Shown in pieces: positions 5,733-6,346 of a stretch of DNA of 12,835 nucleotides (position 1 is its first letter; the number at the start of each line of letters is the position of its first letter). The translations under genes and the position numbers were made by a program. The stretch is taken from the IMG/VR virus record IMGVR_UViG_2579778894_000012. The stretch is one strand, 5' to 3'. The stretch is from a virus. Lineage: Duplodnaviria > Heunggongvirae > Uroviricota > Caudoviricetes. Below the pieces are notes generated by a model. That model did no database searches and had not been told where the DNA came from. It was given only the letters and a program-made list of their open reading frames with translations.

Positions 5733-5765
5733 TTGACAATGTACCCTTGAGATACATAATGTATC
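5733..5765 (+). promoter_or_regulatory. pL-like early promoter with overlapping palindromic operator
   Basis: TTGACA (5733..5738), 16-nt spacer, CATAAT (5755..5760); perfect palindrome GATACAT-a-ATGTATC (5751..5765) over the -10; ATGTACC half-site-like motif at 5739..5745. Confidence 0.55.
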
Positions 5766-5767
5766 TA

Positions 5768-6225
5768 AAAGAAACATGCCACAGGCAAGATTAAACAAAA
5801 TTTGGTTGTAACACGGCGTATGGCACATGCGTCGTTAGCGGTCTGGGGACGTTAAAGGGGACAATCCACTCCTTGCTCGGGCAAACAAACCAGGTAGCCG
5901 GAATGTGCAAGTCAATGAGGATGCTGATAAGACGCCTAACCAGCGTGGCGATTCGGTTTGACGCCTGGGAAGAGACCAGGGTGCAACGATGAGGGCATTT
6001 ATGGAACCGCGACAAAGTGTGGTGCCGTAACTGGCTAAGTGCTCTCAGCGTTGTGGTAATCCGCGAAATGGCGCGGCGGTAAGTATGGCGGGGTTACTCT
6101 TTCCCCGTTGAGGACACCGGATTGTCAGGTTGACCATACACCTGAGTGACAACCCCACCACAACAGCCACTGCTTTGGCGGTACCAGTTTGTACACTTGC
6201 TTCCGGCTGGTACCGCTCTTTTTAC
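5768..6225 (+). ncRNA. Candidate structured leader/ncRNA transcribed from the pL-like promoter
   Basis: About 450 nt, GC-rich by eye, no plus-strand ORF of 60 aa or more and no SD-preceded ORF; several short GC hairpins (CCTGG-N7-CCAGG, CCGCG-N6-CGCGG); ends at a terminator. Boundaries inferred, not measured. Confidence 0.3.
6178..6225 (+). terminator. Terminator-like hairpin within the leader, upstream of the rdgC-like gene
   Basis: Perfect 10-bp inverted repeat GCGGTACCAG / CTGGTACCGC (6178..6187, 6207..6216) followed by TCTTTTTA; a second large hairpin (AAAACAGAGAAGA at 6226..6238 pairing with TCTTCTCTGTTTT at 6298..6310) follows, then TTTTG. Confidence 0.45.
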
Positions 6226-6346
6226 AAAACAGAGAAGAGCATCACCGGACGACGGGCTCATAACCCAATCCACCCGGGCGGCTGCCACCGCAGGTGTTCT
6301 TCTCTGTTTTGTGGAGAAACTAATATCTTGTGCAGAGGAAAATAGA

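Follow-up and report, generated by a model that had tools for sequence, protein, structure and literature searches.

The 12,835-nucleotide (nt) stretch analyzed here (IMG/VR record IMGVR_UViG_2579778894_000012, hereafter the window) carries the immunity and early region of a lambdoid prophage of the cdtI/Ayreon/mEp460/SfV type. Between a pL-like promoter, located after the cI-like repressor gene, and rdgC, the first early gene, lie ∼580 nt of G+C-rich structured RNA (5768–6346), referred to below as the leader. The leader is non-coding and modular, its structure shows covariation, it is homologous to the dicF locus, and tRNAs are co-located with its modules in other phages. We consider it somewhat better than even (about 0.55) that the leader is a non-coding RNA (ncRNA) operon of the dicF-locus type, driven by pL and processed into stable RNAs, some transcription leaking through into the early genes. 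The features of the region are as follows.

5706..5723, plus strand: intrinsic terminator of the cI transcript, a 7-base pair (bp) stem followed by TTTTTAT; a terminator is annotated at the same site in Ayreon and SfV.
5733..5760, plus strand: pL-like sigma-70 promoter, TTGACA-16-CATAAT (−35 at 5733–5738, −10 at 5755–5760), matching 11 of 12 consensus positions.
5750-5766: operator, a perfect 17-bp palindrome AGATACATAATGTATCT that overlaps the −10 (chance expectation, 0.04 matches per window).
5805..5987, plus strand: module A, a ∼175-nt pseudoknotted RNA (core 5814–5980), from an alignment of homologues.
5991..6046, plus strand: module L, a linker hairpin GAGGGCAUU...AGUGCUCUC with a variable apex (−22.1 kcal/mol, z = −3.1).
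6050..6164, plus strand: module B, a 115-nt tRNA-shaped four-way junction with an 8-bp closing stem GUUGUGGU/ACCACAAC.
6165..6223, plus strand: module C, a terminator-hairpin small RNA (sRNA) at the DicF position (stem 6178–6187/6207–6216, CTC, then TTTTT at 6219–6223).
6224..6312, plus strand: module D, a three-way hairpin with a ∼19-bp lower stem (−43.5 kcal/mol, z = −7.1).
6336..6349, plus strand: Shine-Dalgarno (SD) sequence (GAGGAAAA) and ATG of rdgC, read directly from the sequence.
6347-7264, plus strand: rdgC (RdgC family; Pfam RdgC, E = 5e-31; ATG at 6347), the first early gene.

The first-pass annotation, made from the nucleotide sequence, had proposed a near-consensus promoter with an overlapping palindromic operator just after the cI terminator, followed by a structured, G+C-rich leader in the position of lambda pL-nutL-N. 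Both proposals were borne out, the first by the 11/12 match and the 17-bp palindrome. The promoter was the best site within 4600–7000, and the phage Ayreon record annotates a promoter there; transcription is predicted to start near 5767–5769. The G+C content is 0.54–0.56 over 5800–6300, compared to 0.34–0.42 in the flanks, and the GC skew is positive. Folding of 5768–6346 gave z = −4.3 for the plus strand and z = −2.3 for the minus strand. No match to Rfam was obtained in 5768–6346, either at the gathering threshold or at E ≤ 10, when the whole window and narrow slices were searched. ARAGORN and the Rfam tRNA model found no tRNA in the window, and ARAGORN found no tmRNA. The full 17-bp palindrome occurs in the window at pL only. 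The cI/cro intergenic region (4960–5015) and the pL operator region (5739–5766) have the strings TGTACCCT and AGATAC in common in a different arrangement, which suggests that these strings are common repressor half-sites.

Database searches showed that the leader (5700–6350) is 98–99% identical to phages cdtI and Ayreon and to Stx2c-converting phages, and 4757 of 5426 complete E. coli genomes match at least some part of it. The parts differ in their database distribution, which identifies the leader as a mosaic.

5800-5977: matches P1, P7, RCS47, and D6.
5813-6056: matches phiV10, TL-2011b, and O157 typing phage 10.
5890-5999: matches SPN1S, Tyrion, and Klebsiella/Enterobacter podoviruses.
6050-6172: matches many further prophages.
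6176-6324: matches SfV, SfII, and SfIV, whose upstream part differs.

Module A was analyzed in an alignment of 71 sequences, 70 of them distinct (alignment A2). Fifty-six columns are invariant across the P1, lambdoid, and podoviral lineages; the invariant segment GGUAGCCGGAAUGUGCAAG begins at 5893 in the window. The structure derived from the alignment consists of five helices and two pseudoknots. Its partners can pair in 94.9% of cells, a value that falls to 24–42% when they are slid by 1–3 columns. Fourteen pairs show change on both sides, and the covariation score of 0.280 compares to 0.133 in shuffles, none of which (0/500) reached the observed value. In pseudoknot 2, the loop of helix 4 pairs with a downstream GGUG/GGUU, and pair 148–168 is C-G in 52 sequences and A-U in 18. 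Pseudoknot 1 joins GCACA to UGUGC; since both sides are invariant, it is neither supported nor contradicted by covariation. The RNA can be assigned to the plus strand because its G-U pairs (10–20, U-G in 70/70; 113–158, U-G in 35/70) would be mismatches on the other strand. An optional closing stem of GUUGUA (5805–5810) with UGCAAC (5982–5987) was recognized by eye. Module A is an uncatalogued RNA, with no Rfam 15 family and no genome annotation.

Module A is present in 1833 of the 5426 complete E. coli genomes, with 554 of its places on plasmids, and none of these genomes annotates it. A scan of IMG/VR for exact copies of its invariant 19-mer gives a lower bound on the number of loci; an independent anchor in the first helix recovered nearly the same loci, in which the 19-mer differs by at most one base. 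With one genome per species, module A was restricted to Enterobacteriaceae and Erwinia, bar two contigs of metagenome-assembled genomes. These two, labeled Oscillospiraceae and Bacillota (L140 and L152), also carry the 19-mer and are probably mis-binned or contaminant, as all other matches are from Enterobacterales.

The contexts of module A fall into several types. In the lambdoid type (a cluster of 36 loci), it directly follows a cI-type repressor gene on the same strand. At several loci, a promoter-like sequence was seen by eye within ∼10 nt of the first helix, and stand-alone copies have their own promoter and a convergent terminator. In P1, P7, and D6, module A lies right after tRNA-Ile(CAU) (trnI) and before ban in the C1-controlled ban operon, ∼2.4 kb from Pban; no terminator was found downstream of it in these three. 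In phiV10/SPN1S-type podoviruses, it is the first element of a short cassette that runs antisense to the terminase and portal genes and has its own TTGACA-17-TACCTT promoter (by eye). The phiV10/SPN1S-type cassette runs in the order module A, L hairpin, tRNA-Arg, small hairpin, DicF-like terminator, second terminator, and a 123-amino acid (aa) gene. The lambdoid and the phiV10/SPN1S-type arrays share the order A, L, cargo, DicF-like terminator, and second hairpin or terminator, and the DicF-like terminator is offset from the A core by +321 in the phiV10/SPN1S type versus +324 in the window. Every tRNA adjoining module A is on the same strand as A. Clustering of the neighbors revealed no protein gene common to all contexts. 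The near invariance of the junctions across three unrelated phage lineages argues for a conserved host partner of module A, either a protein or a small ligand.

The L hairpin separates cargo modules in all arrays and has the general form GAGAGCAUU...AGUGCUCUC. Its 9-bp stem recurs with differing apices in phiV10-type phages, SPN1S, Tyrion, K-12 Qin, and P1. In SPN1S (locus L007, 2100–2225), the L apex between A and tRNA-Arg is enlarged by ∼100 nt and has T-arm-like pieces (CUGGUUCAAUUCCAG and GUCAGUUCGAUUCGGAC), as if it contained decayed tRNA genes.

The segment that spans module B (6050–6172) is 89% identical over 123 nt to K-12 Qin (locus L010, 2752–2874), where it ends 8 nt before dicF (start at 2883). 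The annotated "dicF-like region" of P1, just after Pban, also matches module B. In the closing stem and two arms, the differences from K-12 and P1 are compensatory. The slot occupied by module B holds tRNA-Arg in the phiV10/SPN1S-type arrays, where GUU is followed by the acceptor strand GUGGCAU, overlapping the GUUGUGG motif. At least 18 length classes of cargo (64–209 nt) have the 8–9-bp frame GUUGUGGU...ACCACAAC; most contain an AAU spacer, a D-like hairpin GCGCAGGCUGAUGCGC, and a T-like hairpin GCCGGAGAUCAGCACCGGC that abuts the 3′ strand, and one is tRNA-Tyr-like with a canonical GGGUUCGAAUCCC T arm. The latter cargo (locus L098; 130 nt, ∼456–586 nt downstream of the module A core) has a GUUGUGG/CCACAAC frame, a D arm, an anticodon loop with GUA, and ∼55 nt inserted into its variable region. 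The combination of an acceptor-type stem, D- and T-like hairpins, and a slot exchangeable with tRNAs supports the description of module B as "processed like a tRNA" and not "is a tRNA". Literature searches brought up no account of module A or the framed arrays; Faubladier and Bouche (1994) may describe conserved dicF flanks.

Module C contains a 10-bp perfect inverted repeat (−21.5 kcal/mol, z = −3.6), and the terminator with a 10-bp stem noted in the first pass is therefore real, with perfect arms at 6178–6187 and 6207–6216. It has 16 of 17 nt as in the central segment of DicF (UUUGGCGGUAyCAGUUU), at the same offset after B. Like DicF, it is placed directly 3′ of a B-type region in a repressor-controlled operon, and it, too, ends with a Rho-independent terminator. 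Terminal hairpins of one family, to which module C belongs, close the arrays in lambdoid and phiV10-type phages; they have the form UUGGCGGU...ACCGCC(C)UUUUUACA, their upper stems covary, and their loops are rich in pyrimidines. DicF itself is released from a polycistronic transcript, its 5′ end being made by RNase E and its 3′ end by termination, at a leaky terminator, or by RNase III, which is reported to generate the 3′ end of the 72-nt form from the full-length dicBF mRNA (PMC5069750).

Module D ends 24 nt upstream of the rdgC SD. Seven of its 29 consensus pairs show compensatory change (for example, CAGAG/CUCUG to CACAC/GUGUG), its apex CUCAUAACCC is conserved, and it is retained in SfV, which is without A and B. 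It was initially described as a second terminator-like hairpin; the long hairpin exists, but it is not a canonical intrinsic terminator because the U-run in its 3′ strand pairs with ACAAAACAG. The K-12 dicF-dicB interval has another sequence in the same placement, namely a structure closed by ∼27 bp that runs from the DicF U-run to the dicB SD (z = −5.5). The RNase III cut for 72-nt DicF would fall within this ∼27-bp stem, and, by analogy, module D is plausibly an RNase III-type processing element or an insulator. Altogether, the leader comprises four or more conserved RNA modules, three of them covarying, that are also seen in other phage settings; this supports the earlier suggestion of a discrete prophage ncRNA, and does so more strongly than had been proposed.

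In the scheme that we favor, departure of the repressor from the operator (5750–5766) would allow RNA polymerase to transcribe A, L, B, and C in order. Some transcripts would end at the intrinsic terminator in C to give a ∼450-nt non-coding precursor, and the remainder would pass hairpin D into rdgC and the other early genes. The precursor would then be cut into stable RNAs. RNase P and the tRNA 3′-end machinery may punctuate the array, a proposal based on the acceptor-like frames (GUU|GUGG...CCAC|AAC), the D- and T-arm-like hairpins, and the true tRNAs found in the slot. By analogy with DicF, RNase E would free the terminal DicF-type sRNA and, as for the 72-nt form, RNase III would cut the ∼19-bp stem of D and so part the RNA array from the early mRNA. 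Module C would act in trans as an Hfq-type sRNA with its own loop (seed) sequence, and module A would be a separate stable RNA. In this scheme, we infer where transcription begins, which enzymes process the RNA, that termination is partial, and what A, B, and C might do.

Several observations weigh against this scheme. Every enzymatic processing step in it is an inference, and efficient termination at C would demand an antitermination device, none of which was identified. The minimum free energy (MFE) folds of modules A (z = −0.5) and B (z = −1.1) are not better than shuffles, and that of A disagrees with the covariation structure; the case for both modules is comparative because their own MFE folds are unremarkable. 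Neither A nor B is called a tRNA by ARAGORN or Rfam. Only 63% pairing was obtained in a first, mis-specified test of the closing helix of module A (columns 2–4 with 193–195). By eye, a shifted helix agrees with the window, P1, and SPN1S types and fails for the phiV10-type copies. The closing stem is weak or missing in the latter and in those copies that begin at a promoter, and this makes the tRNA-likeness of module A doubtful. The DicF model (RF00039) found no match in the window, at its gathering threshold of 48 bits or at E ≤ 10; K-12 DicF scores 76.7 bits and alone reaches the threshold, and the terminal hairpin of SPN1S scores 12.6 bits. Since the family model leaves it undetected, module C is a relative in the DicF position and not DicF. 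Finally, RNAduplex pairing of C with the start of ftsZ was no better than shuffles (fraction 0.55), in a comparison of low power in which DicF itself gave 0.16.

A more far-reaching version is tentative, and we think it possible but doubtful. Module A could be the founder of a class of phage RNAs that dock on an enterobacterial machine, which may be RNA polymerase (a third type of antiterminator, besides put and EAR), another protein, or a small ligand. The arrays could then serve as a "tRNA-scaffold" display in which dozens of cargo are swapped in the frame GUUGUGGU/ACCACAAC for excision by host tRNA enzymes.

Among the alternatives, we regard it as unlikely that module A is a cis-acting processive antiterminator RNA that replaces N and resembles HK022 put or Bacillus EAR in its action though not in its sequence. 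Such an RNA would modify its own RNA polymerase to read through C (and D) into the rdgC operon. In its favor, module A is promoter-proximal and its junctions are almost invariant, as expected if the RNA docks on conserved machinery of the host. In many lambdoid prophages no other element comes between it and the promoter, and one or two terminators lie downstream of it in the lambdoid and phiV10-type arrays. The absence of an N-like gene, remarked on in the first pass, was upheld: 5740–6350 contains no open reading frame (ORF) for an Arg-rich N-like protein, the downstream ORFs were scanned without a match to a Pfam antiterminator family, and no clear Arg-rich N-like N terminus was seen by eye among the translations over 7880–9780. 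The only boxA-like string, CGCUCUUUUUACAA at 6214, is the 3′ strand of the terminator plus its U-run, and by eye no boxB-like 15-nt hairpin follows it. The put RNAs function without phage proteins; they are ∼70 nt with two stems, occur after both pL and pR, and render RNA polymerase terminator-resistant in cis through the zinc-binding domain of β′ (PMC9378689). Module A, in contrast, has ∼175 nt, five helices, and two pseudoknots, with no similarity in sequence or structure to the put-containing region of HK022. Its covariance model found no match in the nun-cI-cro region of HK022 (22–32 kb, putL and putR), and a BLAST search of the whole leader against the put region returned chance matches only (E ≥ 0.72). 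The covariance model (R1) has a single match in the window, at 5810–5984, so there is one copy and no pR-side partner. The identification of module A as an HK022 put RNA was rejected on size, fold, copy number, covariance model, and BLAST, and the earlier proposal of a put-like RNA in place of N was supported by none of the tests run. The contexts are also unfavorable to a cis-acting antiterminator: K-12 Qin and SfV keep the same terminator and hairpin modules without A (C and D in SfV), the copies of P1, P7, and D6 lie far from Pban just before ban with no terminator found after them, and those of phiV10-type phages head a short cassette and not a long operon.

We find it similarly improbable that the leader is a passive, G-rich, folded 5′ untranslated region without trans-acting products, which would shield the transcript from Rho and from 5′-end-dependent decay and throttle it through leaky terminators. 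Its composition (positive GC skew, high G+C), its strong plus-strand folding, and the terminators ahead of the first gene all accord with this explanation. It leaves unexplained the ∼56 invariant positions of module A across P1, lambdoid, and podoviral lineages, the covarying pseudoknot, the stand-alone copies with their own promoter and convergent terminator, and the exchange of cargo with true tRNAs.

Less probable still is that module A is a riboswitch-like aptamer that senses a host metabolite or signal and tunes readthrough or processing of the array. Its size of ∼175 nt, two pseudoknots, and highly conserved junctions resemble those of large aptamers, and it is often promoter-proximal and upstream of a terminator. 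However, there is no adjoining expression platform, the conserved modules L and B being interposed between A and the terminator, and a search of the 120 nt upstream of the terminator stem detected no strand able to pair with it as an antiterminator. Furthermore, the downstream elements differ with context (ban, tRNA-Arg, rdgC, or nothing).

Coding of small proteins, like ydfA/B/C of Qin or the annotated hypothetical proteins, is very improbable: ORFs of 39–74 aa exist on both strands and the Ayreon, mEp460, cdtI, and 2H10 records annotate hypothetical coding sequences across the leader, but near-identical phages carry these annotations on different strands and at different positions, any one frame is open in at most 33 of the 70 module A homologues, lengths vary by non-multiples of 3, and the substitutions in A and D are compensatory for RNA helices. 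The statement in the first-pass annotation that no plus-strand ORF of at least 60 aa is present does not hold literally, as there is a TTG-initiated 71-aa ORF (6130–6345, plus strand) and a GTG-extended rdgC frame from 6146. By eye, neither frame has an SD, and both frames run straight through terminator C and the covarying hairpin D. The hypothetical coding sequences over modules A–D in MF807953 (Ayreon), JQ182728 (mEp460), AB285204 (cdtI), and LR595862 (2H10) are probably mis-annotated ncRNA.

The remainder of the window contains the following features.

5020-5694, plus strand: cI-like Peptidase_S24 repressor (Pfam).
4729-4932, minus strand: Cro-like helix-turn-helix gene.
4134-4697, minus strand: CII-like gene.
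3589-3777, minus strand: C4 antisense RNA and IsrK in tandem (Rfam, 68.4 and 60 bits).
2989-4002, minus strand: Ash/Rha antirepressor-type gene, with the C4/IsrK pair upstream and replication genes next.

The pR operon thus embeds an RNA-controlled antirepressor module of the P1 immI/Gifsy-1 isrK-anrP type, and the C4 and IsrK pair is likewise present in SfV. On the plus strand, rdgC is followed by genes for an HD-domain protein, Ead/Ea22, DUF551, an exonuclease, and a PrtN-like protein (Pfam). At the far end of the early-left region, 11247–11681 and 11698–12237 (minus strand) contain a YafO-family type II toxin gene and an adjoining ORF, which could be the partner of the toxin.

Thus, a highly conserved pseudoknotted RNA occurs in roughly one in three complete E. 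coli genomes and is carried by P1, by Stx2c-converting phages, and by Salmonella and Enterobacter podoviruses. The DicF locus, studied for 35 years as a single sRNA, appears to be one case of widespread modular phage ncRNA arrays in which tRNA and tRNA-shaped cargo are interchangeable. These results give testable ideas on early expression in N-less lambdoid phages, on the role of the region upstream of dicF, and on new phage-host RNA interactions. They would also clear several spurious "hypothetical protein" calls from phage records.

Among the closest known systems, dicBF of K-12 Qin has the same layout as the leader: repressor, repressed promoter, long untranslated RNA, terminator sRNA, long stem, and protein gene. 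DicF is an Hfq-binding sRNA that pairs with ftsZ and other targets to repress them. Compared to Qin, the window is without ydfA/B/C and the 5′ segment of DicF (UUUCUGGUGACG), and the terminator of module C pairs differently from that of DicF. The window adds module A, which is not in Qin, and the genes downstream of its leader are recombination genes and not dicB.

The leader of the P1 ban operon resembles that of the window in being an early, repressor-controlled transcript with a B-like module, L-type hairpins, tRNAs, and module A. In P1, however, these modules are spread over 2.4 kb and interspersed with protein genes (tciABC), and module A is the last RNA before ban, without a DicF-type terminator after it. 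The ban leader is itself an RNA array (AF234172; locus L004, 200–1000 and 2424–2790). Pban is followed by the B-like module and by UUCCAGUUUGCCC...GGGCGUUUUUU, a terminator whose homologue is the second terminator in the phiV10-type cassettes; an L-type hairpin, tRNA-Asn, and tRNA-Thr come next, and trnI and module A later. Downstream of A, shortly before the ban SD, is AUUUUCUGGUGAUGAC, which resembles the 5′ end of DicF.

As with HK022 put, module A is a phage RNA placed just after pL and before terminators in an N-less lambdoid phage; unlike put, it also occurs in contexts without terminators or a long operon. In lambda, an RNase III hairpin separates the pL-proximal RNA signals of the N leader from the SD that serves the first pL gene, and module D is placed in the same way, with no sequence similarity and with a cleavage that is predicted. 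Lastly, non-tRNA RNAs held in tRNA-like frames and excised or stabilized by host enzymes are found in the T4 tRNA cluster (species 1 and 2) and in engineered tRNA scaffolds. The leader would have this idea in common with them, its own processing being conjectural. There is no sequence relation to either, and the frames of the leader are a specific 8–9-bp helix, GUUGUGGU/ACCACAAC.

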